A stretch of 64,000 bases of DNA from an uncultured Desulfurellales bacterium (GCA_964544085.1 CAZIZT010000027.1:33676-97675); one strand, 5' to 3'. Shown: positions 23,379-48,978, counted from the first letter of the stretch. The notes: a model not told the origin generated them from the letters alone. Translations and numbers: made by a program.

Positions 23379-23396
23379 CTGAACGGAGGAAAAAAG

Positions 23397-24614: not shown

Positions 24615-24615
24615 T

Positions 24616-26056: not shown

Positions 26057-26066
26057 GGAGGCGAAC

Positions 26067-27323: not shown

Positions 27324-27345
27324 GCTTGTGAAGAGGTGTTCTTAA

Positions 27346-27987: not shown

Positions 27988-27989
27988 TC

Positions 27990-31630: not shown

Positions 31631-34600
31631 TCCGGTTGCTGCAAACATATTGATGATATTCCTCCTGGTTGGTGGATTTTATTACTCCTACCATATAAAG
31701 CAGGAGGTCTTTCCCGAGTACACAATAGATGAGGTTGTAGTCCAGGTTTCATATCCTGGTGCCACACCCAAGGAGATAGAGAACGGTATTATTTTGCCAA
31801 TAGAAGAGGCTATAGATGGTCTTGAGGGCATCGACAAGGTTATTTCCACAGCCCGGGAAGGGGTGGGAACAGTTACCATCGAAGCGGTAAATGGAGCGGA
31901 TATAAACCAGCTTTACAACGATGTAAAGAATGCTGTTGACAGAATCACCACGTTTCCTGCCGATGCGGAGAAACCCACAATCTATATACCTACAAGAAAA
32001 AGAGCGGTGATAACAATGATCCTCTATGGGGATGTACCGTATTATCAGTTGATGGGGCTCGCCCAGCAGTACAAGGATAGATTGCTTAACTTCAAGAACA
32101 TAACCAACGTTGAGCTCTCAGGCAACAAGCCTTATCAGATAACCATTAGTGTTTCAGAGAACGCGCTGAAAAAGTATTCCCTGACTTTCTCGGACATTGC
32201 GAGGAAAATACGCGATTTTGATACTGAGCTCGGTGGGGGCAGGATACGAACAAGGGGCGGTGATATTCTAATAAAAACAGGTACACGAAAGGAATATGGC
32301 AGTCAGCTTGCAAATATACCAATCATAACCACATCCGGTGGCGGCGTTGTAAAACTGAAAGATATTGCGAAGATAGACGACGGCTTTGAGGATACGGACA
32401 CCTATCTGAAATACAATGGTAAAAGAGCTATTGGCATAACTGTATACAGGGTTGGTGACCAGAAACCTGTTGAGATAGCCGATACGGTTAAGGCATTTAT
32501 TGCCAGGATACGGGATGAATTACCCCCCGGAATCGGTGTCGATTATGTTAGTGACTACTCGCGCATATTCAAACAGCGTAAGGAATTGTTGCTGAAAAAC
32601 GCCAAATTTGGTCTTGTGCTCGTACTTATACTGCTTGCGCTCTTTCTTGAACTTAGGCTTGCATTTTGGGTTATGCTCGGTATACCCGTATCGTTCCTTG
32701 GTTCAATGCTGATATTCCCAATGTTTGGTGTCACAATAAACATGATCTCTATGTTTGCTTTCATTATTTGTCTCGGTATTGTTGTGGATGATGCGATAGT
32801 GGTGGGAGAGAACATCTACTCCTATAGGGAGAAGGGTCTGAGTTTCAAAGAGGCTGCACTGGTGGGCACAAGAGAGGTTTTTGTGCCTGTGGTTTTTAGC
32901 GTTTTGACGAATATGGTGGCGTTTCTCCCGATGTATTTTGTGCCAGGTACGGCAGGAAAGATATTCAGGATAATACCGGTTATTGTCTGTTCTGTTTTTA
33001 CTATATCACTCCTTGAGAGTCTGTTTATTTTGCCTTCTCATATTGCACATCAGAGGGAAAACCCGATCCTGCCGATTAGGGCAATAAACAGGGTTCAGGG
33101 AAAGATTAGCAAGATTATTCACAGGTTAATAAATCTGCTATATACGCCGGTTTTGAAGCTTGCCTTGAGGTTTAGGTATGTGGTTTTCGTGCTTGCAGCT
33201 GTAATACTGTATCTTGCTTTTGTATTTGTTGAGACAGGCAAAATAGGTATTGTCTACTTCCCACGCATTGAGAGGAGTCATGCTACGGTTAGATTCCAGC
33301 TGCCACCGGAGAGCTCTGTATATGACACATTGAAGATAGCCGATATGCTTGTCCAGAGAGCAAAACGTATAATCAAGGAACATGGTGGTAGTAAGCTTGC
33401 ACAGGGTATATTGACGCGTATAGACGGCAATTCAGGTGACATAAGGGTTTATCTGACACCACCGGGTGTTAGGCCTATAAGCACATCCCAATTCACCAGA
33501 CTGTGGCGCAGGGCGTCCAGGGGTATACCGGGTTTGGAGAAAATACGCTTCTCAGCGGATTTTGGTGGACCGGGAGCTGGTGCTTCTCTGACAATAGAGC
33601 TCTCTCATCGGAATACCGCTGTACTTACGCAGGCATGCAAGCAGCTTGCGAATTACCTTAAGACCTTCAAGAACGTATCCGACATAGATGATGGCACTTC
33701 GGCTGGCAAGTACCAGTTTACGCTTACATTGAACAGTCTCGGCAGGGCGCTTGGACTTGATCCTTCCTATATTGCCACTCAACTGCGCGGCGCTTATTAT
33801 GGCATAGAGGCTAAGAAGTTTATCCGTCAAGGCAACGAGGTAAAGATAAAGGTAACACTTCCAGAGCAGCAGAGAAGCCTTGTTTATTATTTCGATCATT
33901 TCATGCTCACGCTTCCAGATGGTACCAGGATACCTCTTAAAGAGGTGGTTAACGTAGAAAAGGGTAGATCCTACGTAACGATAACGCGCGAGGATTTCAG
34001 ACGGGTTATGTACGTGACAGCCAACGTGACACCCGAGAGGGACACAAGGAAGATTGTGGAAAACCTGATGAGGGACTTTCTTCCAAAATTAAAGCAACAC
34101 TATCCTGGGCTCAGCTACTCCTTCGGTGGAAGACAGTCGAGGCTGAAAGAAAGCATGAGTGTTCTTACAAAAGGCTTGCTTGTATCGGTTCTTGTTATAT
34201 TTACAATGCTTGCCATACCATTTAAAAGCTATATCCAGCCTATCATTATTATGACAGCTATACCATTTGGCATAATTGGAGCTATAATAGGTCACGTTAT
34301 CATGGGTTACGATATAAGCATCGTTAGTATGTTTGGAATTGTAGCACTGTGTGGTGTTGTAATCAACGATTCTCTTGTTTTGATAGACTTTGCTAATAGA
34401 ATAAGGCGAACACTCAACAAGAGTCACTACGAGGCTGTGTTTGAAGCAGGAATAAAGCGCTTCAGGCCTATAATTCTCACGACACTGACCACCTTCTTCG
34501 GGCTTATGCCCATGATTTTTGAACCATCAACTCAAGCTCGATTTCTTGTGCCTATGGCTATATCGCTGGGTTTCGGTATCCTGTTTTCGACCTTTATTAT

Positions 34601-34673
34601 TCTGATACTGGTGCCTGGTTTGTATCTCATAGTTGAGGATATCGCGAACCTGTTTGGGTTCACGACAAAATAA
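31599..34673 (+). CDS. RND efflux transporter permease
   Basis: 1024 aa RND architecture with the TM4 motif GIVVDDAIVVGENI. Overlaps the adaptor gene by 32 nt. Confidence 0.9.
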   Translation: MTRIIKFFIDNPVAANILMIFLLVGGFYYSYHIKQEVFPEYTIDEVVVQVSYPGATPKEIENGIILPIEEAIDGLEGIDKVISTAREGVGTVTIEAVNGADINQLYNDVKNAVDRITTFPADAEKPTIYIPTRKRAVITMILYGDVPYYQLMGLAQQYKDRLLNFKNITNVELSGNKPYQITISVSENALKKYSLTFSDIARKIRDFDTELGGGRIRTRGGDILIKTGTRKEYGSQLANIPIITTSGGGVVKLKDIAKIDDGFEDTDTYLKYNGKRAIGITVYRVGDQKPVEIADTVKAFIARIRDELPPGIGVDYVSDYSRIFKQRKELLLKNAKFGLVLVLILLALFLELRLAFWVMLGIPVSFLGSMLIFPMFGVTINMISMFAFIICLGIVVDDAIVVGENIYSYREKGLSFKEAALVGTREVFVPVVFSVLTNMVAFLPMYFVPGTAGKIFRIIPVIVCSVFTISLLESLFILPSHIAHQRENPILPIRAINRVQGKISKIIHRLINLLYTPVLKLALRFRYVVFVLAAVILYLAFVFVETGKIGIVYFPRIERSHATVRFQLPPESSVYDTLKIADMLVQRAKRIIKEHGGSKLAQGILTRIDGNSGDIRVYLTPPGVRPISTSQFTRLWRRASRGIPGLEKIRFSADFGGPGAGASLTIELSHRNTAVLTQACKQLANYLKTFKNVSDIDDGTSAGKYQFTLTLNSLGRALGLDPSYIATQLRGAYYGIEAKKFIRQGNEVKIKVTLPEQQRSLVYYFDHFMLTLPDGTRIPLKEVVNVEKGRSYVTITREDFRRVMYVTANVTPERDTRKIVENLMRDFLPKLKQHYPGLSYSFGGRQSRLKESMSVLTKGLLVSVLVIFTMLAIPFKSYIQPIIIMTAIPFGIIGAIIGHVIMGYDISIVSMFGIVALCGVVINDSLVLIDFANRIRRTLNKSHYEAVFEAGIKRFRPIILTTLTTFFGLMPMIFEPSTQARFLVPMAISLGFGILFSTFIILILVPGLYLIVEDIANLFGFTTK

Positions 34674-34678: not shown

Positions 34679-35995
34679 TTAGTTTGTTCTTTTATCAATA
34701 AGACGTTTTACCTTGCCACTTACCGGGCTTCTTGCCAGAGTTCCAGTGGGTACAAACTCAACGGCGAATGTGCTGAAATACTTTTCCTTTACGGCGAGGT
34801 TTACCATATCCACATGCTGCTTCACTGATTCTAATATTTCTTCTTCAAGCGCTTTGCTTTTTGGAGGATTCGACGACTCAATGCGTAAAATGAAATTCAT
34901 CCTTCCATCATCCGCAAGGGAGAGCACAAGCTGGTATGTTGGTGTTACGCCTTCCTTTCCGAAGTATGGCGAAATAGCAGCTTCAACGTCTTCCATGGAG
35001 ACATAAGCACCTCCGATTTTGAAGTCATCGCCAGCTCTGCCTTTCAGCACAAGCAGGGGGTTTTCGTCACCACACGAACAGCGCTTCTGTTTTATGTAGC
35101 CAACATCGCCAAGACGGTATCTGATCATGGGCATGGAGAATCTGTGAAGATTTGTGACCACTATCTCGCCTTCCTCACCCGGCTCACAGGGTCTATTTTC
35201 CTCAAAATTGTAGATCTCCACCAGCTGAAAGTCTGTCGGTATGTGATACTCGTTGATTCCGCATGAGTTGCACTGGTAGCCTATGATACCGCAATCTGCG
35301 CTGGTGTAGCTGGCAGACCTGATACTGGCGTTAACAAAAACGCTTTTTATGTACTCCTCTGTATTTTGTGGCAGCGGCTCGGAGGTGAACTGAAGCAGTC
35401 TAAAACTCTCAAGTGTTATCTTACGTTTTTTGCACTCCTCAGTTAGTATGGTTATCACCGTTGGCAAGGTAAGCAGCACCGTCGGTTTGAACAGCTCAAA
35501 GTACTCAAGGACCCTATCCATGTGCTCCTTCGGTATGGCACCTATGGGCAAACAGACGGCGCCGGTCCTTTTTATGACCTCGTAGCCACCTATGAAGGAT
35601 GGCCACAGATAACCAGAAACGAACATATTGGCTACAATGTCCCTTTTGCCAACACCCAACAGCTTCATTGCTTTTGACTGGTACTCTGCAAATAGATCCC
35701 ATTCGTTGTAGGTCAAGACGCTGTATCTGGCTATGCCGCTTGAACCACCGGTTGAAACGACAATCATGCTTTCGATTGGCACCGTTAGCATCTTTTTCGA
35801 TTTCGGATACGAGTTTTCATAGACTTCACCGCGGGTTAAAAATGGGATTTTCAGCCAGTCCGAATAGCTTTCCACATCTTCTATATTCTCAAATTTCTCC
35901 TTGTAAAAGGCAGACTTCGTTTTAGCGTGCTGGAATACCTTTGCGGCGAGTTTTAATTGCTCTTCCAGTGAGATTCTATTGAATAGCGTCTCCAT
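34679..35995 (-). CDS. PaaK / coenzyme-F390-synthetase-like adenylate-forming ligase (paralogue of the C-terminal half of 40433..43135)
   Basis: 438 aa with a P-loop-like STGGSSGIARY. It shares the blocks GYQC, VVTNL...RYRLGD, CSCG and LKGRAGDD with the fused ligase domain. Confidence 0.7.
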   Translation of the reverse strand: METLFNRISLEEQLKLAAKVFQHAKTKSAFYKEKFENIEDVESYSDWLKIPFLTRGEVYENSYPKSKKMLTVPIESMIVVSTGGSSGIARYSVLTYNEWDLFAEYQSKAMKLLGVGKRDIVANMFVSGYLWPSFIGGYEVIKRTGAVCLPIGAIPKEHMDRVLEYFELFKPTVLLTLPTVITILTEECKKRKITLESFRLLQFTSEPLPQNTEEYIKSVFVNASIRSASYTSADCGIIGYQCNSCGINEYHIPTDFQLVEIYNFEENRPCEPGEEGEIVVTNLHRFSMPMIRYRLGDVGYIKQKRCSCGDENPLLVLKGRAGDDFKIGGAYVSMEDVEAAISPYFGKEGVTPTYQLVLSLADDGRMNFILRIESSNPPKSKALEEEILESVKQHVDMVNLAVKEKYFSTFAVEFVPTGTLARSPVSGKVKRLIDKRTN

Positions 35996-35998
35996 GCA

Positions 35999-37351
35999 TC
36001 ACTCCTTTATGTACTTATGCTTTATGGAGGCTTTTGTTTTATCTATCTTTTCGAGTTTTACATCTATCAGATCCATGCCGGTTGCCCGTGTTAGGTTGTC
36101 GTATTTTGCAACAAACTCCTTTGAGAACTGCTTTAGAAACTGCACAAGTCTCTGTTTGCATAGCTCTTTTTTGTCAGACACATCATCAAACGTGTAGATG
36201 GTAAATATGAACCTGTCGATTCCCTCAATGCTTTCCTTTTTCACGTCAAACAGACCGGTGTAGGAGATTTCCTTTTCCATAGAGTACAGGAAGTTGCCTA
36301 TATCCTGAATCATCAGGTTTGTGCCATAGAAAATAACGCTATTCTCTGGCCTACCGTGTATGTAGAACATATCATTCGGCAGTTTCTCATAGAGTTCCTT
36401 ATCAATCTTCCCTTCCAGCTGGGCTTTTTTCAAAAGACCACCTCTGTCTTTGGTGTTGTATCTCACAAGCGGTATTAACTGATCCTTTGTTACGACTATC
36501 TGGCCATCTATGACATCTATGTGTGCAGTACCAAGATCCCTCATAATCATAGGCGTGTCATCTGTGCCGAACAGTTCCTTTGAGAGCGCCTTGTTTTCAA
36601 ATTCAAGGTATTTGCGAAGGGCGATTGTCTCTCTTGTCTCCATGGCTATACCACCCGTATCGGCTGAACCGTATCCGGTCCATAGTACAGCTTCCTCGTT
36701 TTCGTTATGTCCAAAGCGTCTTGCCATATCTCTTCTGTAGTTTTCGCTGAAATACTCTCCGATTACGCCGAAATAGACCCTGCCATTAAGGAGTTCGGGC
36801 TCATCTTTGAGCAGCGAATAGATTATGCTCACGTTGGAGGCGTTCGTTATAAAAAGAATCTGATCGTACAGATGCTTGAACCTTTTAGCAACATTAGCAG
36901 CTTCCTCCAGATCAAGACCTGGAAAGGCTGAGGTCAATGGGTAGGGTGTCCTTGAAGCGAGGCTTCTCATGTAGCAGGCTACCTGCATGCCTCCGAACCA
37001 CATACCAAACGCTGTGGCAACAAGTATCAACGTTTTGCGCCTGTCGATAGCGTATAGCTCCTTGAAGTTCTTTTCAAAGAGTTTGAGTTCAGCATCCTCG
37101 TTTTCTGGACCTTTCAGCCAGTAGACACTTCCGGTTTTCGAAAAGCCGCTTGAAGCACCGATTAAAGCACACCTGTCTATATCGCCCCTTCTTACAACCT
37201 TCTCTATCGGGTATTGGAGCAGGTAGTTATCCTTTGTGGTGATCGGTATCTTTTCCCACTCTTTTACCTTTTCAGCGCCGTGTTTTTTCAGAAAATCTGC
37301 ATAAGCCTCGACGTTCTTTTTCACATCCTCAAATAGAGCCATCCTATCCAT
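35999..37351 (-). CDS. Divergent PaaK-like adenylate-forming enzyme family protein
   Basis: 450 aa. N-terminal layout resembles PaaK-type ligases (IPITTKDNYL, GASSGFSKTGS, later LVRYNTKDRG). AAGGAG RBS. The next ligase gene follows after 3 nt. Confidence 0.5.
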   Translation of the reverse strand: MDRMALFEDVKKNVEAYADFLKKHGAEKVKEWEKIPITTKDNYLLQYPIEKVVRRGDIDRCALIGASSGFSKTGSVYWLKGPENEDAELKLFEKNFKELYAIDRRKTLILVATAFGMWFGGMQVACYMRSLASRTPYPLTSAFPGLDLEEAANVAKRFKHLYDQILFITNASNVSIIYSLLKDEPELLNGRVYFGVIGEYFSENYRRDMARRFGHNENEEAVLWTGYGSADTGGIAMETRETIALRKYLEFENKALSKELFGTDDTPMIMRDLGTAHIDVIDGQIVVTKDQLIPLVRYNTKDRGGLLKKAQLEGKIDKELYEKLPNDMFYIHGRPENSVIFYGTNLMIQDIGNFLYSMEKEISYTGLFDVKKESIEGIDRFIFTIYTFDDVSDKKELCKQRLVQFLKQFSKEFVAKYDNLTRATGMDLIDVKLEKIDKTKASIKHKYIKE

Positions 37352-37519
37352 TTTTGTTCTCCTTACAGGTTTTTCGTTGTTTTTTATCTGTCAGTCCGCA
37401 GTGCAACCCACCAACTCCTTTGCCGGGCTTCATATCACCCATTCCGCTTTGTCTGTATCAACCTCTGATGCAGTGCGGCGGCTTTTGTCTGCTTCTTTCT
37501 TTGTTGAGCTTGGAGTTTT

Positions 37520-37552
37520 AAGACCGCTTGTGTCGGTCTTTTTTGATTTTTT
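37520..37552 (+). terminator. Intrinsic-terminator-like hairpin plus T-tract, oriented on the plus strand inside a minus-strand cluster
   Basis: AAGACCG-cttgtgt-CGGTCTT followed by TTTTGATTTTTT. On the minus strand the hairpin is followed by AAAACTCC, so it does not terminate transcription in that direction. Confidence 0.35.
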
Positions 37553-37694
37553 CTGGTTATCGAGCAAACGTTCAACGCTTTTAACCCCTTTGGCGTCATA
37601 ATCCAAACAAAGGGTACGTGAGTAACATCATTACAGCATTACAGGTTTATTGATAAACCTTTGTGTACATTATTGGAACGTGCGACTTATCGAT

Positions 37695-37723
37695 AATGTA
37701 TATTGCACAGGAACCTCTGTCAA
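37695..37723 (-). promoter_or_regulatory. Candidate sigma-70 promoter for the two distal PaaK-like genes
   Basis: Minus strand reads TTGACA, a 17-nt spacer, then TACATT. It would give a leader of about 335 nt before ATG 37351. Confidence 0.35.
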
Positions 37724-37787
37724 CACCAATTTGCGTATCATCGGCTAACAACAGATTATAGTCGCAATAGAACAGCCGTTGAGCCAC

Positions 37788-38978
37788 TTAATTGAGCTCC
37801 TTGATTTTTAGCATCTGAAATGACATGAAAATTATGATAATACCGCTTACAATGAGGATTGACCTTGTACCGATTAGAGAAACAAGCACGCCGGTCAAAG
37901 CATAACTCACCGGCAGAAGCGACAGGGCAATGGCTCCAAGAAAAGACATAATCCTGCCTAAAACTTGATCGGGCAAACGCTTCTGGTATACCGAGATTAT
38001 GCTTACGTTGGAGATGTTTACTCCTGCTCCAATTAGAAACAGGCTCAGCAGCGAGATATAGAAATTGCAGAGTGTGCCGAAGACAATAAACATCACACCC
38101 ATAAGAAGGGTGCTGAAAGATACAACAATCCTATCCGATGTGGTTATTCGTACACTTCCCATGACAATTGATGATACAAAGATGCCCGCTGCGAATGCAC
38201 CCATCATAAAACCTATGCCCTTTGCACCCATGTGGTATATGTTACCGGCAAACAGCGGGATTATGATTGTGACAGAACCGTAAAACAGGTTGATAATGGC
38301 GGCTTTTCCGATGAGCCTGGATACTATCGGATGCTGTTTGATTAGCTTAAGCCCATCCTTTATGGAGGCAATAAACGATGTCACCTGTGCCTGAACCGAT
38401 AGAGCAACCGTTTTGATGCCATACAGCAGTAGCGCGGATAAGAGAAATGATACACCGTTTGCAGCGAAAGCAAGCGGCAAACCGATAAGTGCTATAAGGC
38501 TGACCCCCACAAGTGGCCCTATGAGAATACTGAAGCTCGATCCTATTTGAACAAGCGCATTGGCTTTCGTGATCTCTTCCTGCTTAACAATTTGCGGCAC
38601 GATGGATAGAGAAGCAGGCATGAAGAAGCCCTGAGCCACCGACATAACGACGGTTATAGCGATTAGATTCCACAGATTAAGCGCATGGCTGAAAGCAAGA
38701 AAAGAGAGGGCGAAAACACAAACCGCCTGAACGATGTCGGTGGCAGCCATGATCCTTGCACGTCTCATTCTGTCTGCAATCTGACCGGCAAGCGGTGATA
38801 CCAGCACACCGGGAAGGGAGAATGCAACCATAACGGCGGCTATGATTATACCGGATTTGCCCCACTTGTAGGCTATCCACAGCAGTGCCAGTGAGTGTAC
38901 ACCGTCACCTATGCGCGATACAAAGCGCGACAGGAAAAATCTGAGGAAATACCTGTTTTCTTTGAAGAGTTTAAACAA
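37788..38978 (-). CDS. MFS transporter
   Basis: 396 aa with about 12 TM helices and the MFS loop motif GQIADRMRRARIM between TM2 and TM3. Overlaps the GNAT gene by 8 nt. Confidence 0.8.
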   Translation of the reverse strand: MFKLFKENRYFLRFFLSRFVSRIGDGVHSLALLWIAYKWGKSGIIIAAVMVAFSLPGVLVSPLAGQIADRMRRARIMAATDIVQAVCVFALSFLAFSHALNLWNLIAITVVMSVAQGFFMPASLSIVPQIVKQEEITKANALVQIGSSFSILIGPLVGVSLIALIGLPLAFAANGVSFLLSALLLYGIKTVALSVQAQVTSFIASIKDGLKLIKQHPIVSRLIGKAAIINLFYGSVTIIIPLFAGNIYHMGAKGIGFMMGAFAAGIFVSSIVMGSVRITTSDRIVVSFSTLLMGVMFIVFGTLCNFYISLLSLFLIGAGVNISNVSIISVYQKRLPDQVLGRIMSFLGAIALSLLPVSYALTGVLVSLIGTRSILIVSGIIIIFMSFQMLKIKELN

Positions 38979-40449
38979 CGTTACCCATAACCTCCTTCAT
39001 CATTCTGACCGAATAGTCAAAGAGTGTTTTGGCAAAATCGCTGTATATCTGTATCCTCGATAGGTCTATTTTTGAGTTTAGGTACTGAAATCTTATCGCA
39101 TCCTTGCCATTGAAGGCATAAGGAACCACGCCACAGAAAAAGAAGCCCATCTGTTCAAGCTCTGGCAGGAATTCATCTATCCTTGCATCGTACATCGAGA
39201 TGTTGAGAAGTATAACCTCTGCACCGGTGGATAGTCTCAACTGGTAAAGGGCATTCTTAACCTTTGATGATAGATCCCTTCCAACAGCCGGTACATTGAT
39301 AATACCGAACTCGCCGATAGAGCTGAACTTTGCTGTAACCTGTGTTGTGCTGGAAAAGCGTTCCTCCTCCGGTTGTACAACCCCAAGACCCAGTTTTGAA
39401 TATATCACCATAACCATCTCTCTATGCTTTTCCGGTATGTACAGGTGGCGTGGCTTGAACTCAAGCGGCTTGAAGTAGAACATACACGTTTCCCTTCCCC
39501 TGCCGGGTTTTATGTCCATTTTCCTGAAGCTAAACTCCTTGTATAGCAAACCAAACGAGACGCCGCATGGTGTTGATCCGAATTTCTCGTTGAGCTTTTG
39601 GGTGCGCGTGTGGCTTGTGACCGGCTGGGAATAGATACCCAGTATGTTTAAGCTCCTTGCAACCTCCTCAAGTTTCTGTCTCATTTTGACAACAATACCT
39701 CTGCCTCTGTATTCGGGATCCACGACGGCAAGTCCAAGTTCAACAACATCGCCGTGATCGTATCGCTCTATGGCGTAGTGTCCAACGACACGGCCGTAGG
39801 TTTTATCGACAGCTACTATGGAGACAAGTTTCCCCTGTCTGTTTAAGCTTTCCACAACCTCCGGGTAGTACATATCCTCGTTGGGATAGGTGTAACCGTA
39901 CGCCTTGTAGATCAAACGGGTTACCTGATACGCATCCTCGGGGTTTAGAATTTCAATTGAGATGTTGTCAGTGGGCGGTTCCTGCTTTTCCTTTGTTGGA
40001 GGTTTGAAGGAGGTTATAGCCTTTCTTGGTCTGCGGAAGCGTATTCTTAACTCCTTGCCCTGTTTGCCGTGATTGATCCACTCTAACTTGTAGCAGGTGT
40101 TTCTTATGATTTTCAGCTGCAGTTCACTTATATCATCACCAGTTTCATAGGGTTTCACACCGAAGGGCAATCCCTTGTCGAAGAAAGAGAGCACAAACTC
40201 CACCTCTCCAATGGAGGCAACGAGTTTTATCTCGGACTCCTCGTCTTCCTCAAAGGCACTCGTCAGGGTGTACACGAAAGCCTCTTCAGCTATCAGCTCA
40301 AACTTCAGCAGTTCGGCATCCTCAAAGCCAGCTATCTGTGCAGTGGTTGATGCAAAGCCCCTGACAACAGAAAGCAGGGCTATGTCGTTGGGCACTATCA
40401 GGCTGCAGCTTAAGGTGTTTTTGCTTGGCTTTTTATTTTGATCTTTCAT
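38971..40449 (-). CDS. Three-part protein: N-terminal anti-sigma-factor/HATPase-like domain, central GNAT acetyltransferase, C-terminal uncharacterised domain
   Basis: 492 aa. Residues about 15-135 resemble the RsbW/SpoIIAB fold (FELIAEEAF...VLSFFDKGLPF...ELRIRF). The GNAT core is GHYAIERY...LAVVDPEYRGRGIVVKM. The last 180 aa or so are unassigned. Confidence 0.6.
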   Translation of the reverse strand: MKDQNKKPSKNTLSCSLIVPNDIALLSVVRGFASTTAQIAGFEDAELLKFELIAEEAFVYTLTSAFEEDEESEIKLVASIGEVEFVLSFFDKGLPFGVKPYETGDDISELQLKIIRNTCYKLEWINHGKQGKELRIRFRRPRKAITSFKPPTKEKQEPPTDNISIEILNPEDAYQVTRLIYKAYGYTYPNEDMYYPEVVESLNRQGKLVSIVAVDKTYGRVVGHYAIERYDHGDVVELGLAVVDPEYRGRGIVVKMRQKLEEVARSLNILGIYSQPVTSHTRTQKLNEKFGSTPCGVSFGLLYKEFSFRKMDIKPGRGRETCMFYFKPLEFKPRHLYIPEKHREMVMVIYSKLGLGVVQPEEERFSSTTQVTAKFSSIGEFGIINVPAVGRDLSSKVKNALYQLRLSTGAEVILLNISMYDARIDEFLPELEQMGFFFCGVVPYAFNGKDAIRFQYLNSKIDLSRIQIYSDFAKTLFDYSVRMMKEVMGNVV

Positions 40450-43135
40450 CTATTACAAGCCTTATCTTGCCGGTTCTTGGGTTTCTCTCAATTGTATTGT
40501 ACGGCACAATCTTCACATCTATATCGTTTATAAGCCCCTCAGCGTACATCGTGCTCAATTCCTTTGATCTGCTTCTTATAGCCTTCTTAAGCCTTTCTTC
40601 GTCTTCAGCCGTTATGTTCGTGTATCCATCTTTTGCCTCGACTATAACAACAAGTGTATCCCTGGCGTTTTCAGTTTTTGCTTTCATCTGGAAATGGTTA
40701 CTCAAAAAGTCAAACTGTGCTATAGCACCAGCCACCACTTCAGGGTATATATTGCCACCACCTATAATCAGCACATCATCGCTTCTACCCAGCAGCTCAA
40801 ATACCCTTGTTTTTCTACCACATGCACACTCTGTCTCCACCCATCTTGCCATATCGCCAACTTCGTACCTTATCGTGGGCATCAGTTTTCTAAACAGGTT
40901 TGTTACAACCACCCTCCCGGGTTCACCTATTCTACAAGGCTCATCGTTGTCGTTTAAAATCTCCATGTAGTGCACATCTTCATGCACATGGTAGAATCCT
41001 GATGGCAGGTGCCTGCACTGATAGCCTATGGTCCCCGTGTCGTTGGTCGTGTAATCTGTGGAAGAGAACCTTTCAACGCCGAGTATGCTCTTTATGTATT
41101 CCCTTGCTTCGTTGAAGAGATGCTCACCGCCTGTTACTATTTTCTTTATCTTGAGGTTGAGTCTGTTTTTCTCAACGTACTCAGCAATGGATATGGCAAC
41201 CGACGGTATCGTGATGAAACCCGTTGCACCGAACATCATGAGGTTGTTAACCACAGCCTCTATTGAGATATTGCCGCTTATGGGCAAAACCCTGCATCCG
41301 ACAACCTCGAGTGCCATATTGAACGAGACAAAAGACGCCCACATGTTACCGGCAAACAGTAGATTAGCCACAACGTCGTTTTCGTCGAATATGGAGAGCT
41401 TGAGACCTTTACCTAATTTGTATGCATTGAACCACTGCTCCTCGAACGTCCTGTAAACAACCTTGGGTTTGCCTGTGGTACCACCGCTTGCAAAGACAAA
41501 GCCCCTGGGGTTGTCATCTGTTAGAAGCCCACTGCCAAAGGGAGGAATGTATTGCTTGTAATCATCGCCGGTCAAGAGCGGAACCTTCCTGAACTCCTCA
41601 AAGCTGTCGATTCTATCGATATCCCTGTATCTTTCCTTCAACAGCGGTGAATGCTCCTTAGCGTATTTGAAAACCTCGTTTATGCGTATAAGAGTCAACC
41701 TGTCTCTTTCTTCCTGCGGCAGGAAATCAAAGTAGTCCTCTTCAGGGTTATACGTGTGTTTGGGGATGGTAATATCCCACTGGGCTTCCAGTTTATCGCG
41801 TGAAAGCGAAATCCACTTCACAAGCTCGCTAAGGCCCCTTGTACCATCATGCGGCGTGCCGTGTTTCCTTGTGGCCATTCTGCCCGCCTCGACAAACCTA
41901 TCGGCACCCACATCACCGAGCTTATCCGCAAGATCCGCTGCAGTCTCATCATCAACAACCAGAGCGACAGACTGCATATACTCGCCCATCGGTTCCACGG
42001 CTTTGATCACGTCAAATACACTGTCGATTGCTTTTACAAAGAGCGTTCTGTTCTGGCACGATATCTGAAATTGCTTATCCTTCTGGTAAACGACCGTGCT
42101 TAAGCCCTTTTTGCCTATCTTAAAATCACTTACTCCCAGTGCCTTTTCAACCTTGGCAAGTTCTCTTACCTTATTTATCTCGACAGCCTCGTCATCGTAA
42201 ACCTCACCCTGCGGCAGTGTATCAAACCACTCATCGAAGCTCTCAGCAACCTTCTCCATGAGCTTAAGTGCGTTGTCTTCACCTTCCACATAGACCACGT
42301 GGGGCGATGAACAGGCTGACTGCTCCCACATAAGGGCATCCTTAGCAATCATACGCGCCACATTGTCTATGCCCCTTTTCTTTAATTCACCTTCCTGCAC
42401 CACTATAAAGCTGTACTTTGGTCCGTATTCAACCAGTTTGGTGTGAAGCCCCAGGTCCTTTCTGTAGCTTAAAACCGTGTCTCTTCCACCGTAGACAACG
42501 ATGCAGTCGGCAAGCTGCTTTAGGGGTTTCTCAACAACCTCATTGCCCCCCTTCCAGTGGATTAACGCCATGGCTTTGTGCAAAACGCCCGTTTCATCGT
42601 TTTCCTTTAAGCTTTTTGCAAAAAGCACCGGAAACAGCGGATCAACGGTGGACATCTTCATAATGTTCACGTTTTTGGTGATTATACCCTGAATAAGACT
42701 ATCCACACCGCCTACAAACACGTTACCTGCTGAAACATGTACAACCACACCGCGCGGTTTTGCCATGATGTAGCCCTTAAAGGTCGGATGGTAAACCCAC
42801 TCGTCGAGGTACTTGAAATCACCAAGATCGGTGTTCAGTCTTATCATAAGGTTTCTTTTTTTGAGAAGGTCGCACATACTCTTTATGCCTTCCTCTACCA
42901 TCTCCCTTGAGAAACCTATCATGGAAGGGAGCTTTTCAAGTGCTTCCTTTCTGTATGGGTAGTTCTCATCCATCCAAAGGTGGGAGAGTTTATCGAGGGT
43001 CTCTACGATCTGTTGCATCTTCAGGTTCGCTACTTGCTGTTTTAGGGACTTTGCCTCATCCATAATTTCGTATATCTTTTCCCTGCCTAAGGGAGAGTCG
43101 AGCTCTTCCAGCCTGCCGAACAGATAAAATTCCAT
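40433..43135 (-). CDS. Fusion protein: LuxC-type acyl-CoA (thioester) reductase N-terminal half plus PaaK/F390-synthetase-like adenylating C-terminal half
   Basis: Start taken at ATG 43135 (AGGAGG RBS), which gives 900 aa. The LuxC-like half has the catalytic-Cys context EQSACSSPH. The ligase half has the ASGGTTGKPK P-loop, GYQC, RYEVGD and CACG. Confidence 0.75.
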   Translation of the reverse strand: MEFYLFGRLEELDSPLGREKIYEIMDEAKSLKQQVANLKMQQIVETLDKLSHLWMDENYPYRKEALEKLPSMIGFSREMVEEGIKSMCDLLKKRNLMIRLNTDLGDFKYLDEWVYHPTFKGYIMAKPRGVVVHVSAGNVFVGGVDSLIQGIITKNVNIMKMSTVDPLFPVLFAKSLKENDETGVLHKAMALIHWKGGNEVVEKPLKQLADCIVVYGGRDTVLSYRKDLGLHTKLVEYGPKYSFIVVQEGELKKRGIDNVARMIAKDALMWEQSACSSPHVVYVEGEDNALKLMEKVAESFDEWFDTLPQGEVYDDEAVEINKVRELAKVEKALGVSDFKIGKKGLSTVVYQKDKQFQISCQNRTLFVKAIDSVFDVIKAVEPMGEYMQSVALVVDDETAADLADKLGDVGADRFVEAGRMATRKHGTPHDGTRGLSELVKWISLSRDKLEAQWDITIPKHTYNPEEDYFDFLPQEERDRLTLIRINEVFKYAKEHSPLLKERYRDIDRIDSFEEFRKVPLLTGDDYKQYIPPFGSGLLTDDNPRGFVFASGGTTGKPKVVYRTFEEQWFNAYKLGKGLKLSIFDENDVVANLLFAGNMWASFVSFNMALEVVGCRVLPISGNISIEAVVNNLMMFGATGFITIPSVAISIAEYVEKNRLNLKIKKIVTGGEHLFNEAREYIKSILGVERFSSTDYTTNDTGTIGYQCRHLPSGFYHVHEDVHYMEILNDNDEPCRIGEPGRVVVTNLFRKLMPTIRYEVGDMARWVETECACGRKTRVFELLGRSDDVLIIGGGNIYPEVVAGAIAQFDFLSNHFQMKAKTENARDTLVVIVEAKDGYTNITAEDEERLKKAIRSRSKELSTMYAEGLINDIDVKIVPYNTIERNPRTGKIRLVIDERSK

Positions 43136-43148
43136 TTTTTCCTCCTGC

Positions 43149-44270
43149 TTATGCATTTTTGAGCAGCTCTGCCGCCGTGATGGCGCATCCTTTGTGTTTC
43201 TGTTTGCCGGCCCTTCCTAAAAGCTCGATGTAAGGCGTTTTTATGCCGCAGGTGCAATTGTTTTTCAGCATGCCGTAATCTGTGGAGAGTATCGAAATAG
43301 TGGGCTGGGCAAGGTTGTATGGCGACAGAAGATGCAAAAGGCCCTTTTTAGCAAAACCCAGAAACTCCAGATGACCCGGTTTTCTCACAAATACGGATGC
43401 ATAAATGGGCACATGGAAGTGCCCTTCGCGGCAGGTGAGATACGGTACGCCATGCTCAACGAATCCATAGATGTCTCTGAAGTTGCTCATCGGTATACCC
43501 AATGTCTCATGTATCTCTTTTTTGAAGAGCTCATACGGTATGCTTTTTTCCTGCTTATCCTTCCAGCCGCCACCTGTTATTACCATGCTTTCTTCGTGGT
43601 TGAAATCGTAGCTTAAGTGTTTCTCTTTTAGGGTAAGCGCTATCTCGTGCATAAATGCCGGAAAACCAACCAGCCTCAGTGGTGTGTTTTTATCCTTTGC
43701 ATACTCTTCAAGCTTCTTCAAAACACCGTCCTCGTCGAATTGTGGAACGCCTTTTTCGTTAGCGTGTATGGCGAAGAACTTATCTTTAGCAGGGGCAAAT
43801 GTGGTGTACATATTGTGCGTGTAGGCTGCTCCTTTGTTGCCTGCAATCTCTGGATCGTAACTAAAAACAATATAGTTTACCGGTTTCTGTGTCGGTACGC
43901 CCACAGCCTTGACTATGCGCTCCCTCATCCTATTCTGCCTTTCTTTGGATGCGGTATCACACAGGACATGGCTCTTCTGACCGCTTGTTCCGCTCGATGT
44001 GAACTCATATGCTATCTCCTCTTCTGGCAGTGTTCTGAGCGTGTACCACTTCAGAACGTTGACCATGATGTGCGGTATGTGCCTGATATCGTCGGGTGTT
44101 TTCAGATCGTCCGGAGAAAAATCCTCGAAATCGCATACCTTTCTGTAGACCTCGTTGCGCGTGTAGTGAAATTCGAACACCTCCTTCATTGCTTTAAAAT
44201 AGATTTCTCTGCATTCGTCGCTGGTGCAATACGGATCTTCTATTGTAAACAGCCTATCGAGATACTCCAT
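43149..44270 (-). CDS. LuxE-family acyl-protein synthetase / acyl-adenylate-forming enzyme
   Basis: 373 aa with P-loop TSSGTSGQKSHV and overall LuxE layout. AAGGAGG RBS. First gene of the cluster. Confidence 0.75.
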   Translation of the reverse strand: MEYLDRLFTIEDPYCTSDECREIYFKAMKEVFEFHYTRNEVYRKVCDFEDFSPDDLKTPDDIRHIPHIMVNVLKWYTLRTLPEEEIAYEFTSSGTSGQKSHVLCDTASKERQNRMRERIVKAVGVPTQKPVNYIVFSYDPEIAGNKGAAYTHNMYTTFAPAKDKFFAIHANEKGVPQFDEDGVLKKLEEYAKDKNTPLRLVGFPAFMHEIALTLKEKHLSYDFNHEESMVITGGGWKDKQEKSIPYELFKKEIHETLGIPMSNFRDIYGFVEHGVPYLTCREGHFHVPIYASVFVRKPGHLEFLGFAKKGLLHLLSPYNLAQPTISILSTDYGMLKNNCTCGIKTPYIELLGRAGKQKHKGCAITAAELLKNA

Positions 44271-44548
44271 GGAGAAACTCCTCCTTTATAGGTTTTAGAA
44301 TCGATTAAACATAATAACTGTGCTTTACGCTAACTCTATTATACACCTTTTATCAAGTTTTAGAAAGCATATTTGTTTAAAAATGTCAAGTTGCTGCTAA
44401 AGTGCGTTAATGCTGCCAACTTAGGGTTTGTTTTTGGTTCTTCAATCTGTGTTAATTAATGTTTAAGTATCATAAATCTTACAGAACCATCTTAGAAGGT
44501 TTAACCACTTATACTTAATAATTAACTAACTGGTTACAAAGAGATGTC

Positions 44549-44576
44549 TTGACAAATTAAAGCAAAGTGTTAGAGT
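44549..44576 (+). promoter_or_regulatory. Candidate sigma-70 promoter (TTGACA, 16-nt spacer, TG-extended TAGAGT) for the gltP-like operon
   Basis: cTTGACAaattaaagcaaagTGtTAGAGT lies about 35 nt upstream of ATG 44613. Confidence 0.5.
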
Positions 44577-44612
44577 TCTATGAGTAATAAACATCTACAC
44601 AGGAGGTGGCTT

Positions 44613-45896
44613 ATGGCGAAAGGTTCTTCGTGGCTGTCGTGGTATTTCAAGCCGAGTCTGCTTTTGAGAATCCTCATTGGACTCGTTTTGGGTGCTATCT
44701 TTGGTCTAATCTTTGGTGAAAAGATCATGTGGGTTAAGCCCTTCGGCGAAGTCTTCGTGAGATTGCTTAAGATGATCGTCATGCCTGTTGTGATCACATC
44801 ACTTGTGGTCGGTGCTGCAAGCATCGAACCCTCAAGGTTGGGAAGAGTAGGTGTGAAGATTGTCATACTCTATCTAATCACATCTGCTATCGCCGTGGCT
44901 CTGGGTCTGATTTTTGGTAACCTGTTTCATGTAGGAAGTGGTGTGAACCTTGCTGAAATTGGTCATGGAGTTGTCAAGAAGGCTTCTTCTACGAGCTTTG
45001 TGGATACGCTTTTAAACATCATACCGAAAAATCCATTTGCTGCTATAGTTAAGGGGCAGGTTTTGCCTGTAATCTTTTTCTCGATTATCTTCGGTATTGG
45101 CATAGCCTTTTTGAAAGATAGCAAGGATGAGAGGCTAAAGAGCGCAGGTGAGGTTGTATTTAAGTTCTTCGACGGCTCAGCTGAGATTATCTACAAGATG
45201 GTTGGCTGGATTCTGGAGTATGCTCCTATCGGTGTTTTTGCGCTGCTTGCCGTTGTCTTCGCAAAAGAGGGTTCAAAGGCTATTGGACCACTGGCACTCG
45301 TCGTATTCGTTGTGTATCTCGCTCTGATTGCTCATGTGGTAATCACATACGGAACACTCCTGAAGATAAACGGCATATCGCCGCTTAAATTCTTCAACAA
45401 AATCAAAGAGGCATCCATTACAGCATTTGTTACAAGAAGCTCAAGCGGTACTCTGCCTGTGACGATGAAGGTTGCAGAGGAGAATCTCGGCATTGCCAAG
45501 GGTGTTTACTCCTTCACACTTCCGCTTGGTGCGACAATCAATATGGACGGAACAGCTATTTATCAGGGTATATGTGCCCTGTTTGTTGCTACCGCGGTAG
45601 GCGTGCACCTGAGTATAGCCCAGCAGATAACGGTCATCATAACAGCTGTTCTTGCGTCAATCGGTACTGCAGGTGTTCCGGGTGCTGGTGCGATAATGCT
45701 ACTTATGGTGCTGAGCTCTGTCGGGCTTGATCTGTCGGCAAATAGCCCTGTAGCGCTCGCCTATGCGATGATACTGGGTGTGGATGCGCTTCTTGATATG
45801 GGTAGGACATCAGTGAATGTGACAGGAGATTTGACGTGCACCACAATTGTTGCTAAATCAGAAAAAGAGGTTAACTGGGAAGTGCTTCAGAAATGA
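44613..45896 (+). CDS. Dicarboxylate/amino acid:cation symporter (DAACS, GltP-like)
   Basis: Start at ATG 44613 (AGGAGG RBS). Motifs [17 protein letters not shown] and [11 protein letters not shown] are characteristic of the glutamate/aspartate symporter family. Confidence 0.85.
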
Positions 45897-46588
45897 AGAG
45901 GCTCGGCATTATAGGGGGAATGGGTCCACAGGCAACTGTGGACCTGTTTCAAAAAATTATCGATCTTACCCCGGCCAACAGGGACCAGGATCATATACCC
46001 ATCGTTATTGACAACTACCCACAGGTACCGGATAGGACGGCATACCTGTGTGGTGATGGTGAAAATCCCCTTCCATATTTGCTTGAATCGGTAAAAAGGC
46101 TTGAAAGGGCAGGCGTTGATTGCCTGTGCATGGCATGCAACACGGCTCACTACTTTATAGATGAGCTGAGGGCGGCTACGAGCCTTGAATTCATAAGCAT
46201 GGTTGAGTCTGTGCTTAACGATATAAAGAGAAGCCCGCGTCGTTATTCAAAGGTGGGTATTCTTGCAACAGATGGAACAATCAAGGGCAGGGTTTACCAT
46301 AGACCGTTTTCTAAAGCTGGTATTGAGATAGTGGACCTTGATGCTAACCTGCAAAAGATTGTGATGGATGCGATCTATCTTCTGAAGGCGGGCAGAACGC
46401 AGAAAGCCGTTGAAAGGTTCAAAGAGGCTTTAGCCGCCATTGAAAAAGAAGGGTATGAGTGTCTGATTGCCGCATGCACGGAGATACCCGTTCTGTTTTC
46501 ACATGTTAAGGAATATAGCGGCGCAGATGTTTATGATGCCACCTATTCCCTTGCAAAAAGGGTTGTGGAGTACTGTTTTGTTGAGTAA
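45893..46588 (+). CDS. Aspartate/glutamate/hydantoin racemase-family protein (aspartate-racemase-like)
   Basis: 231 aa. N-terminal [11 protein letters not shown] and two catalytic-Cys contexts ([15 protein letters not shown]). ATGA overlap with the symporter gene. Confidence 0.8.
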
Positions 46589-46594
46589 AGGAAC

Positions 46595-47698
46595 ATGAGC
46601 CACACGCTTGTCTGTTACCTGTGCAATAGATCCTATAAGCCGGATAGTTTGAAGTGGAGATGCGATTGCGGTGGGTATCTGGATGTGCGCATGGATGAGC
46701 GCAGGATCGATTTTGAGAAACTTGATGGCAATAGGGGCATGTGGCGATACGAAGCAATACTGCCCGTTGAGGATCCACACAGCATTGTGTCGTTTAATGA
46801 GGGTTTTACACCGCTTGTTGATACCGGTTTTTCGAATGGTAAGGTGTATTTCAAACTCGACTATTTGTTTCCCTCCGGTTCATACAAGGACAGAGGGGCA
46901 AGTGTGCTGTTAAGTATGGTTAAACAGCTCGGTGTCACTGAGATTATTGAAGACTCCTCCGGTAATGCTGGCTCCTCGATAGCCCTGTATGCTGCGAGGG
47001 CTAACGTGAAAGCCACAATCTACGTGCCGGCTGATACATCCGCATCAAAGATCACGCAGATCAGAGCCTCTGGTGCGCGTATAATGCTGATTGAGGGCTC
47101 AAGAAGGGATGTGTACGAAAGGGCTATCAACGATGCAACAGAGAAAAGCATCTATTATGCAAGCCATATATGGAATCCATACTTCTTTCAGGGTACAAAG
47201 ACGTTCGCTCTTGAGCTCTTTGAACAGATGGGCTATACATCACCGGATGCGATTGTTATCCCTGTGGGCAATGGAACGCTGTTTATTGGTGCCTATCTGG
47301 GGTTTGAGTATCTCAAAAGACTCGGATACATCAAAAGGATGCCGTCATTAATAGGGGTTCAGGCAAAAAACTGTGCGCCACTTTTTGCCAGTAAACATTC
47401 CTTGAGATTTAGCTCTTCTGAAACCATAGCCGAGGGTATAGCCATTGAGAATCCACCAAGGATAAAGCAGATACTGGATATTGTCGAGGAAACGGGTGGT
47501 GATATTGTAGTTGTAGGGGAGGGAGAAATCGTCGATGCGATGAAGAAGCTCCATAGGAGTGGCTTCTATGTTGAGCCCACATCGGCAGCTGCCGTAGCCG
47601 CCCTTGACAGGATAACAATTGCTCAAAATAGCAGTGTTGTTGTCCCACTAACAGGAAGTGGACTGAAAACACAGGATAAAATAGAAAAATTTCTTTAA
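46595..47698 (+). CDS. Threonine-synthase-like fold-type-II PLP enzyme with an N-terminal Cys4 zinc-ribbon-like segment
   Basis: 367 aa with CYLC...CDCGG at the N-terminus, PLP-lysine context SGSYKDRG and the glycine loop PVGNGT. Confidence 0.65.
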   Translation: MSHTLVCYLCNRSYKPDSLKWRCDCGGYLDVRMDERRIDFEKLDGNRGMWRYEAILPVEDPHSIVSFNEGFTPLVDTGFSNGKVYFKLDYLFPSGSYKDRGASVLLSMVKQLGVTEIIEDSSGNAGSSIALYAARANVKATIYVPADTSASKITQIRASGARIMLIEGSRRDVYERAINDATEKSIYYASHIWNPYFFQGTKTFALELFEQMGYTSPDAIVIPVGNGTLFIGAYLGFEYLKRLGYIKRMPSLIGVQAKNCAPLFASKHSLRFSSSETIAEGIAIENPPRIKQILDIVEETGGDIVVVGEGEIVDAMKKLHRSGFYVEPTSAAAVAALDRITIAQNSSVVVPLTGSGLKTQDKIEKFL

Positions 47699-47771: not shown

Positions 47772-47888
47772 GAGTGAGTTAATTCTCCGAGCTTTTAAAC
47801 CTAAGGCTTCCTTTGATGGGAGCTATGGTTTTTAAGCCGATAGGGTGAGTGTGGAAACGCATTCGCCTCCCGTGCTTGGAAAGGAGAA
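47772..47888 (+). promoter_or_regulatory. Molybdenum/tungsten-cofactor (Moco, moaA-motif) riboswitch candidate
   Basis: Contains CTCCGAGC near the 5' end and a stem AGCTTT/AAGGCT. The 3' segment TTCGCCTCCCGTGCTTGGAAAGGAG closely resembles the E. coli moaA leader (...CUUCGCCUCCCGUAUCUGGAAAGG...). The RBS is embedded in the 3' arm, and a Mo/W transporter lies directly downstream. Confidence 0.72.
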
Positions 47889-47891
47889 GTT

Positions 47892-48962: not shown

Positions 48963-48978
48963 TGTTCGGAGGTGCTCA

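Follow-up and report, generated by a model that had tools for sequence, protein, structure and literature searches.

Six genes on the minus strand of a contig from an uncultured Desulfurellales bacterium raise a simple question: what do they make together, and is there a known pathway that resembles them? The DNA analysed is a stretch of 64,000 nucleotides (nt; GCA_964544085.1 CAZIZT010000027.1:33676-97675), called the window below, and the six genes, called the cassette, occupy 34679-44270. They encode a LuxE-like acyl-protein synthetase, a fusion of a LuxC-type thioester reductase to a PaaK-like ligase, a GNAT acyltransferase, an MFS exporter and two further ligase-like enzymes, here named P5 and PaaK6. 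An original prediction, made from the sequence alone, called the set an orphan and knew of no characterised pathway with such a composition. The orphan claim is wrong. The leupeptin operon has the same inventory, and every biosynthetic protein is homologous. Because of this homology, and because the same fusion of LuxC to a ligase is found there, the orphan claim fails on the prediction's own terms. From homology and by analogy with leupeptin, it is reasonably probable that the six genes form a carrier-free cassette that makes and exports an N-acyl peptide aldehyde.

The genes themselves are as predicted. All six open reading frames (ORFs) are found on the minus strand at the coordinates proposed for them, in one direction and, P5 apart, with Pfam domains in support. 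The public gene call starts the fusion gene at 43135, which gives a protein of 900 amino acids (aa); the length is 900 or 907 depending on the start used. With the 900-aa start, a recount returns the predicted distances: a 13-nt gap between the LuxE-like gene and the fusion gene, overlaps of 17 nt (fusion and GNAT genes) and 8 nt (GNAT and MFS genes), and a spacer of 436 nt at 37352-37787 between the MFS and P5 genes. P5 and PaaK6 are then 3 nt apart. Both motifs quoted in the prediction, FTSSGTSGQKSHV and FASGGTTGKPK, were found again.

The composition also stands. Pfam finds LuxC, AMP-binding and AMP-binding_C_2 in the one protein encoded by 40433-43135. The NCBIfam models nearest to the ligases are of the PaaK, DVU_1553 and F390-synthetase types, all far under their cut-offs. 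Carrier protein, condensation, polyketide synthase (PKS), thioesterase and luciferase domains were searched for with Pfam in window ORFs of at least 150 aa, and none was found. The same families are absent from the recurrent ORF families of at least 80 aa in 80 related loci. Among ORFs of at least 25 aa in the 436-nt spacer, none is carrier-like, and none has a condensation, PKS, thioesterase or luciferase domain. The absences and the count given earlier are upheld: four adenylate-forming modules, one thioester reductase, one GNAT and one exporter, with no carrier.

Comparison with leupeptin and other known systems

The leupeptin operon consists of an MFS gene and genes for the LuxE-family LeupA, the acyl-coenzyme A (CoA) reductase LeupB, the PaaK-family LeupC and the GNAT LeupD (bioRxiv 10.64898/2026.08.25.747093; PMC8283571). 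The names leupA-D and polymerase chain reaction primers have been published (PMC8283571). Eight loci came out of a scan of metagenome contigs for exact matches to primer leupA_f. In one of them, L082, leupA_f and leupB_r are 1,235 bp apart, which is the published amplicon size and marks it as a genuine Klebsiella leup locus. Its gene order of MFS, LuxE-like, reductase, PaaK-like and GNAT equals the published annotation. The proteins are an MFS of 419 aa, LeupA of 378 aa (Pfam LuxE), LeupB of 803 aa, LeupC of 446 aa (PaaK-like) and LeupD of 305 aa (GNAT with a C-terminal extension). LeupB matches LuxC at E 1e-111 and also AMP-binding, and is therefore itself a fusion of LuxC to a ligase.

BLASTP aligns LeupA with the LuxE-like protein of the window at 34% identity over 378 aa (E 1e-73), and LeupB with both domains of the window fusion at 24% over 837 columns (E 2.5e-65). 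LeupC is 30% identical to the fused ligase domain (E 2e-38) and 27% to PaaK6 (E 1e-31), while LeupD aligns at 22.5% with residues 163-372 of the GNAT protein (E 1e-13). Hidden Markov models (HMMs) of the cassette families match the Leup proteins at E 5e-104, 4e-52, 2e-65, 1e-77 and 2e-25. LeupC scores E 1e-77 against the HMM of the fused-domain family and E 9e-58 against that of the PaaK6 family, so LeupC and PaaK6 may not be strict one-to-one orthologues. The ligase domain of LeupB is closest to the fused ligase domain of the window, at 31% identity. Profile alignment of LeupD with the window GNAT family has an hhalign probability of 98.8% (E 7e-17).

Specific motifs are shared as well. LeupA and the LuxE-like protein have an identical P-loop, TSSGTSGQKS, and both have CxCG...ELLGRA and a C-terminal Cys. 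Around the catalytic Cys, LeupB (DQQACSSPQ) and the window reductase (EQSACSSPH) share QxACSSP. The ligases of both systems have (S/T)GK...(V/L)ID(K/E)R at their C-termini, and LeupD and the window GNAT share YGxxYxYPxxYxP, GHxAL and SHxxSQ. Both gene sets have an adjacent exporter, and in neither was a carrier protein or condensation domain found.

There are differences as well. Identities are only 22-34%. P5 is a fourth adenylating enzyme in the window, and its family HMM matches nothing in leup. The window GNAT protein, at 492 aa, has an RsbW-like N-domain and a different C-domain, both of which the 305-aa LeupD lacks. The fused ligase domain keeps some 80 extra N-terminal residues compared to leup. 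The exporters are not orthologous: the window MFS is of another subfamily than the Klebsiella one (E 0.14). Relatives of the cassette carry partner-switching genes, unlike leup. Finally, cassette hosts are anaerobes of many phyla, while leup hosts are Enterobacterales (Klebsiella michiganensis/oxytoca, Photorhabdus, Xenorhabdus).

Judged by sequence, then, the cassette is a distant, enlarged homologue of the leupeptin operon: every sequence-level feature of leup that was looked for is found in it. The ligase-based leup route has been called narrowly distributed (PMC11480411). A literature search, with subscription papers mostly outside its scope, found leup discussed only in Klebsiella, Photorhabdus and Xenorhabdus and nothing outside the Gammaproteobacteria; a prior description is possible.

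The names LuxC and LuxE suggest bioluminescence, and the reductase chemistry is indeed comparable. In lux, an acyl-adenylate becomes an acyl-Cys on LuxE, then an acyl-Cys on LuxC, and is then reduced with NADPH (PMC9157457). Both Cys residues align. The LuxE-like protein has Cys362 near its C-terminus, conserved in 61 of 62 homologues, and matches the true Photobacterium LuxE (7xc6_E) at 95 bits. The LuxC domain has its catalytic Cys in EQSACSSPH, invariant in 68 of 68 homologues, and matches LuxC (7xc6_A) at E 1e-43.

That the cassette is a lux-type fatty acid reductase, whose long-chain fatty aldehyde would go into light emission or the synthesis of wax, alkanes or ether lipids, is nevertheless very improbable. 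The Pfam LuxC and LuxE matches and the matches to the LuxC-LuxE complex 7xc6 fit this idea. They are offset by NCBIfam equivalog scores far below the cut-offs (176.6 against 750 bits for LuxC, 119.1 against 550 for LuxE) and by the LuxE-like protein being nearer to LeupA (225 bits) than to LuxE, with the acyl-accepting Cys aligning in both. Such a reductase would also have no role for three extra ligases, a GNAT and an exporter. Domains of luxA, luxB or luxD were found neither in window ORFs (Pfam) nor among the recurrent ORF families of the 80 loci. The earlier statement that this is not a lux operon therefore holds. The reductase of the window is fused to a ligase, unlike LuxC of lux, and its substrate is probably not a fatty acid. 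The flagellin-glycosylation islands of Aeromonas also carry luxC/luxE, but they come with an acyl carrier protein and glycosyltransferases, which is a different context (PMC7874193).

Carrier-free amide synthesis by such ligases has precedent. The PaaK-family enzymes NatL2 (6siw/6tm4) and AjiA1 (6wuq) make amide or ester bonds without CoA or a carrier, and are among the sequence and structure matches; McbA, of the ANL superfamily, is a carrier-free amide synthetase among the structure matches. The fused domain, PaaK6 and P5 share fold and adenylation motifs with carrier-free ANL ligases (the NCBIfam models DdaG and BagE/FevW included), although remotely so, with 12-16% identity in structural alignments. 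What these comparison enzymes do not have is several ligase paralogues in one pathway.

Among the window ligases, the fused domain has the P-loop SGGTTGKPK and a C-terminal TGK...VIDER, and matches PaaK-family 4r1l at E 5e-41. PaaK6, with P-loop STGGSSGIAR and C-terminal SGK...LIDKR, aligns with it at hhalign E 3e-100. The C-terminal Lys is conserved in every ligase of the cassette.

P5 is less obvious. It has no match in Pfam, NCBIfam or PDB sequence searches, and forms a family of its own that Pfam does not model. In a set of 1.84 billion representatives this family has 771 clusters at E<=1e-3, 471 at E<=1e-10 and 59 at E<=1e-30. Profile comparison does relate it to the fused ligase domain (hhalign probability 98.7%, E 1.5e-16) and to PaaK6 (97.3%). 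The AlphaFold model of P5 has a predicted local distance difference test (pLDDT) score of 88.9 and a predicted template modelling (TM) score of 0.86. Foldseek places it with PaaK-family BT_0428 (4r1l, E 2.4e-17, TM 0.63), then PaaK1/2 and NatL2, with the ANL amide synthetase McbA as a more distant match. The invariant residues of P5 match the adenylation core motifs (GASSGFSKTGS, GYGSADTG, RYNTKD, GR and K444-H445), so P5 is probably active as an adenylating enzyme.

Peptide aldehydes are also made by nonribosomal peptide synthetases (NRPS) with a terminal reductase, which yield leupeptin, antipain and flavopeptins in Streptomyces and dipeptide aldehydes in gut Clostridia. The likely product class is the same, but the window lacks A-T-C modules, a phosphopantetheine carrier and an SDR-type R domain. 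Pfam matches to phosphopantetheine carriers, condensation domains or ketosynthases, which would place the cassette with NRPS or PKS systems, are absent from the window. The leup and NRPS machineries for peptide aldehydes are unrelated and convergent (PMC10548850).

The grouping across genomes and its partner-switching genes

Do the six genes belong together? An alignment of fusion-protein homologues was scanned against one genome per GTDB species, which gave the 80 loci. Their ORFs were searched with the window proteins, and each family was scored as present or not per locus. The loci span more than 10 phyla. Hosts include Thermodesulfobacteriota, Desulfurellaceae, Acidobacteriota, Geobacteraceae, Marichromatium gracile and Rhodopseudomonas palustris, and further Kapabacteria, Armatimonadota, Chloroflexota, Melainabacteria and Riflebacteria. 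Many loci are from Bacteroidales, including gut Prevotella, Muribaculaceae, Rikenellaceae, Cryptobacteroides and Paludibacteraceae.

The six families are all present in 35 of the 80 loci. Where at least 3 kb of flank is to spare on both sides (28 loci), 16 have all six, and 2 more have a MATE pump for the MFS. The cassette of the cultured Hippea alviniae consists of the same six genes. There are at least three gene orders: LuxE-Fusion-GNAT-MFS-P5/PaaK6, GNAT-MFS-P5-PaaK6-LuxE-Fusion and MFS-P5-PaaK6-LuxE-Fusion-GNAT. The flanking genes vary. Because the families recur together in this way across many phyla, their grouping is far beyond chance, and the co-occurrence proposed as a check in the original prediction is borne out. 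This includes the genes past the spacer, as both P5 (47 of 80 loci) and PaaK6 are co-conserved. Homology, common architecture, conserved catalytic residues and co-conservation are all plain observations.

The exporter is conserved in 47 of 80 loci, with a MATE pump instead in some. NCBIfam relates the window MFS to 2A0121 (E 7e-63) and EntS (E 1e-30), both under cut-off. MATE replaces or joins the MFS in L028, L042, L044, L048, L074-L076 and L080, and this favours export as a conserved step irrespective of the type of pump.

The most divergent fusion homologues, at 36-38% identity, are in L066, L068, L071, L073-L075 and L079, from Armatimonadota, Chloroflexota, Riflebacteria and Melainabacteria. 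LuxE and the fusion remain in these loci, where neither P5 nor PaaK6 can be recognised, and often no GNAT either. They may be reduced or differently equipped variants.

The GNAT protein has three domains. It is encoded by 38971-40449, and AlphaFold models it with pLDDT 88.7. The anti-sigma-like domain that had been predicted scores 25.0 bits against HATPase_c_2 in the window protein, under the Pfam cut-off of 27.4, and is firm at the family level: 22 of 25 homologues match HATPase_c_2, the best at E 5e-17. The family profile of this N-domain finds RsbW (6m36, E 6e-10) and SpoIIAB (E 3e-6), and aligns with stand-alone RsbW-like kinases of related loci at an hhalign probability of 96.6%. It is 60% identical to its counterpart in L001, the closest relative, and is conserved about as well as the C-domain. 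That C-domain is modelled confidently (pLDDT mostly >90), yet matches nothing in PDB or Pfam by sequence, and HMM comparison does not relate it to the C-terminal half of LeupD; nor does hhalign show a second, duplicated GNAT within the protein.

The ATP-binding boxes of the N-domain are not intact. The N-box Asn, at position 60, is Tyr here and varies as Y/H/N/D across the family, and G1 reads D-K-G-L-P, with the second glycine lost. The stand-alone kinases in related loci keep EEL..N and GGLGL. With the N-box Asn and the second G1 glycine gone, the fused domain is probably a pseudokinase and not a kinase.

Clustering all ORFs of the 80 loci revealed the rest of a partner-switching system. A family of STAS proteins (about 100 aa) adjoins the cassette in 35 of 80 loci, and a dCache-HAMP-SpoIIE PP2C phosphatase family in 32. 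An RsbW-like HATPase_c_2 protein of about 130 aa stands alone in 11 loci and is fused to the phosphatase in others. Candidatus Sulfidibacterium hydrothermale has all of this in nine genes, GNAT-MFS-P5-PaaK6-LuxE-Fusion-STAS-RsbW-PP2C. Partner-switching genes are also found at L092-L094.

In the relatives, the first step of the pathway would thus come under a module of dCache-PP2C phosphatase, RsbW kinase and STAS protein. The STAS protein probably docks on the RsbW-like domain of the GNAT, as we infer from these neighbours: unphosphorylated STAS would bind there and so control the first enzyme. In known RsbW/SpoIIAB-STAS-PP2C modules the output is a sigma factor, whereas the apparent output in the cassette relatives is an enzyme, the GNAT. 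Within the scope given above, the literature search found nothing linking partner switching to a GNAT output.

In two Sulfurovum genomes, STAS, RsbW and PP2C genes come straight after a GNAT homologue, and neither a ligase nor a reductase gene is found within 10 kb. These four-gene units are at 10001-13791 of L092 (Sulfurovum sp. NBC37-1, AP009179.1) and at 3864-7657 of L093. Either the other genes of the pathway are at a distance in the genome, or this GNAT serves a separate role.

Such a separate role leads to another idea, in which the GNAT is a partner-switch-controlled lysine acetyltransferase, similar to Pat or AcuA, that toggles the ligases at their C-terminal Lys or, more broadly, is part of a protein-acylation system. 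GNATs that regulate AMP-forming synthetases are established biology. The conserved C-terminal Lys of the ligases, the RsbW-like domain with its adjoining STAS, RsbW and PP2C genes, and the Sulfurovum units all fit. The GNAT domain is, however, specifically LeupD-like, in both profile probability and common motifs. LeupD, which carries no regulatory domain, is the sole candidate for supplying the N-acetyl group of leupeptin. The top Foldseek matches are mostly small-molecule or amino-acid N-acetyltransferases (ArsN, PAT, SpeG), with protein N-terminal acetyltransferases (RimI/RimJ, Ard1) also among them. A pathway of this kind would moreover need an N-capping step against self-condensation of an amino aldehyde. 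All told, a lysine acetyltransferase here is improbable. The original prediction had offered protein acylation or regulation as its alternative: as the main function this is not supported, while a regulatory flavour remains in the RsbW-like domain and the STAS and PP2C genes of relatives.

In the window itself, a complete partner-switching system is not present: the N-box and G1 of the fused domain are degenerate, and single sequences and profile HMMs found no STAS, RsbW-kinase or PP2C gene in its 64 kb. There are two sigma-70-family factors, at 53891-54769 and 59528-60235. The second, with 235 aa and only regions 2-4, belongs to the group usually bound by RsbW/SpoIIAB-type anti-sigma factors.

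Proposed chemistry and its reach

The activity predicted earlier, in which carboxylates are activated, one is reduced to an aldehyde, an amine is N-acylated and the product is exported, fits leup, the closest characterised system. Leupeptin is reportedly made by 'discretely expressed ligases and accessory enzymes', as the abstract of Li et al. 2020 is said to put it. In Streptomyces roseus, leupeptin synthesis involves a leucine acyltransferase, a leupeptin acid synthetase that depends on ATP and a leupeptin acid reductase that depends on ATP and NADPH; the steps proposed below for the cassette agree with this classical enzymology.

For the cassette, we infer the order of the reactions, the substrates and the number of residues from homology with leup and with the LuxC-LuxE reductase, as follows. 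The LeupD-like GNAT domain would N-acylate the first amino acid from an acyl-CoA. The PaaK-fold ligases (fused domain, PaaK6 and probably P5) would then adenylate the carboxylate of the N-acyl chain and couple it to the next amine. The LuxE/LeupA-like enzyme would adenylate the final carboxylate and load the acyl group onto its own Cys362. From there it would pass to the catalytic Cys of LuxC, where reduction by NAD(P)H would release the aldehyde for export by the MFS pump. With one adenylating module more than the three of leup, the simplest guess is one more amide bond. This suggests, for example, an N-acyl tetrapeptide aldehyde, which is only a guess.

Several points weigh against this peptide-aldehyde pathway. 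With identities as low as 22-34%, the pathway may use substrates other than amino acids and yield something that is not a peptide. The steps assigned to the Leup enzymes themselves come from domain content, from what Li et al. 2020 reportedly found and from the older Streptomyces enzymology. P5 or PaaK6, with their non-canonical P-loops, could be inactive, iterative or doing a different reaction, so that the ligase count may not give the chain length. The exporter is not the ortholog of that of leup. The window has none of the separate partner-switching genes, and the Sulfurovum units, with their lack of nearby ligase or reductase, fit a regulatory GNAT as well as a biosynthetic one.

The same machinery might also make something other than a peptide. 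The ligases would then join fatty, aryl or dicarboxylic acids to amines or polyamines, with one carboxylate reduced, and the exported amide-linked aldehyde could be a lipoamino aldehyde, a metallophore-like compound or a precursor of a pyrazinone or pyrazine signal. This is a serious though rather unlikely alternative. Besides the low identity to the Leup proteins, it draws on PaaK-family relatives that act on aryl and acyl acids, on an exporter of the EntS / MFS_3 type, and on TonB, ExbB, two TonB-dependent receptors and an RND pump nearby in the window. Klebsiella and Photorhabdus convert leupeptin itself to pyrazinone signals (PMC11480411). However, the only characterised homologous operon makes a peptide aldehyde, and the GNAT shares specific motifs with LeupD. 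The TonB, receptor and RND neighbours are conserved with the cassette in 0 of 80 loci, and no Fur-type or siderophore-uptake gene travels with it. A link of these neighbours to siderophore or metal uptake by the cassette was rejected on the same ground.

If the peptide-aldehyde pathway is right, how far does it reach? Tentatively, the cassette may represent an undescribed and very widespread leup-like family of carrier-free aldehyde pathways. These would make longer or different N-acyl peptide aldehydes, with the first committed enzyme gated post-translationally by dCache-PP2C, RsbW kinase and STAS acting on a GNAT-fused pseudokinase. Members of the family so proposed would be found in Thermodesulfobacteriota, Desulfurellales/Hippea, Campylobacterales, Acidobacteriota, Geobacterales, Chromatiales, Rhodopseudomonas, Chloroflexota, Armatimonadota, Melainabacteria and many gut Bacteroidales (Prevotella, Muribaculaceae, Rikenellaceae, Cryptobacteroides). 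The dCache domain might sense the exported product, or a ligand from the host or the environment, and the loop might thereby be closed.

A known pathway explains the core chemistry; what is new is how broad the family is, together with its additional ligase and the proposed partner switch directed at an enzyme. Peptide aldehydes such as leupeptin are potent protease inhibitors. Species-level genomes with the leup logic and an extra ligase number at least 80, in more than 10 phyla, with hosts that include animal and human gut Bacteroidales and the cultured Hippea alviniae, Marichromatium gracile, Rhodopseudomonas palustris and Candidatus Sulfidibacterium. Should the products be protease inhibitors or signals, they would make up a class of metabolites of microbiomes and sediments that is unexplored and probably abundant. 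Genome mining centred on NRPS is unlikely to flag the cassette, since it has no NRPS or PKS domains. If the gating is as proposed, the output of the partner switch is a biosynthetic enzyme and not a sigma factor, and the GNAT with its RsbW-like domain is a case in which direct action of partner switching on an enzyme can be tested.

Features of the cassette and its surroundings

Table 1. Features of the cassette, in window coordinates.
Feature	Location	Strand	Details
PaaK6, LeupC-like stand-alone PaaK-family ligase	34679..35995	-	438 aa; AMP-binding E 3e-10
P5, divergent PaaK-fold adenylate-forming enzyme	35999..37351	-	450 aa; hhalign and AlphaFold (AF2)/Foldseek
Spacer inside the cassette	37352..37787	-	436 nt; promoter/terminator-like elements
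MFS exporter, MFS_3/EntS type	37788..38978	-	396 aa; Pfam MFS_1 E 2e-35, MFS_3 E 8e-33
C-terminal alpha/beta domain of GNAT protein	38971..39492	-	residues ~320-490; range runs to stop codon
LeupD-like GNAT acyltransferase domain	39544..39963	-	residues 163-302; Pfam Acetyltransf_1 E 4.7e-9
RsbW/SpoIIAB-like (HATPase_c_2) N-domain of GNAT protein	40030..40416	-	residues 12-140
PaaK-like adenylate-forming ligase domain of fusion	40433..41728	-	residues ~470-900; AMP-binding and AMP-binding_C_2
LuxC-type thioester reductase domain	41729..43135	-	residues ~1-469 of 900-aa fusion; Pfam LuxC E 7e-86
LuxE/LeupA-like acyl-protein synthetase	43149..44270	-	373 aa; Pfam LuxE E 1.5e-51
Upstream intergenic region, shared with divergent SDF-symporter gene	44271..44579	-	read from sequence

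The spacer contains a sigma-70-like element, TTGACA-17-TACATT, on the minus strand at 37723-37695, and a terminator-like hairpin on the plus strand at 37520-37540. Its ORFs are only short and lysine-rich, and it has no Rfam or plasmid BLAST match. In L001, whose fusion protein is 78% identical to that of the window, the same junction measures only 38 nt; the 436-nt spacer is specific to the window genome.

Upstream of the LuxE-like gene, an extended -10-like TGTATAAT can be read by eye at 44345-44338, and a ribosome-binding site AAAGGAGG immediately precedes the ATG. A consensus promoter scan of 44271-44579 reported no minus-strand promoter, and the element at 44345-44338 is for that reason only a putative one.

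Divergent from the cassette, 44580-47698 encodes an SDF-family dicarboxylate/amino-acid symporter, an Asp/Glu racemase and an enzyme dependent on pyridoxal phosphate (PALP). These genes could supply an unusual amino acid; as precursor supply for the cassette they are not supported, each recurring in only 1 of the 80 loci.

The plus-strand run at 17527-34673 is long. It contains two TonB-dependent receptors, a weak DUF4198-like match, a 4Fe-4S protein, an HGD-D dehydratase-like protein with a BcrAD/BadFG activase, DsbD_2 and a GEVED-domain protein, followed by ExbB and TonB and, after these, an OEP/HlyD/AcrB efflux pump. The run resembles an island for uptake or redox functions and shows no conservation with the cassette.

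At 47773-47902 there is a molybdenum/tungsten cofactor (Moco) riboswitch (87 bits), directly upstream of an operon at 47892-50483 for an ABC ATPase, a solute-binding protein and a permease. This is probably a molybdate or tungstate importer.

Further away, 5194-14365 has LUD-domain, CCG and 4Fe-4S proteins and an FAD-linked oxidase beside a TRAP transporter (DctPQM) and a GntR/FCD regulator, probably a utilisation cluster of the lactate or glycolate type. A tRNA gene is found at 61478-61561 (Rfam, 49.5 bits).

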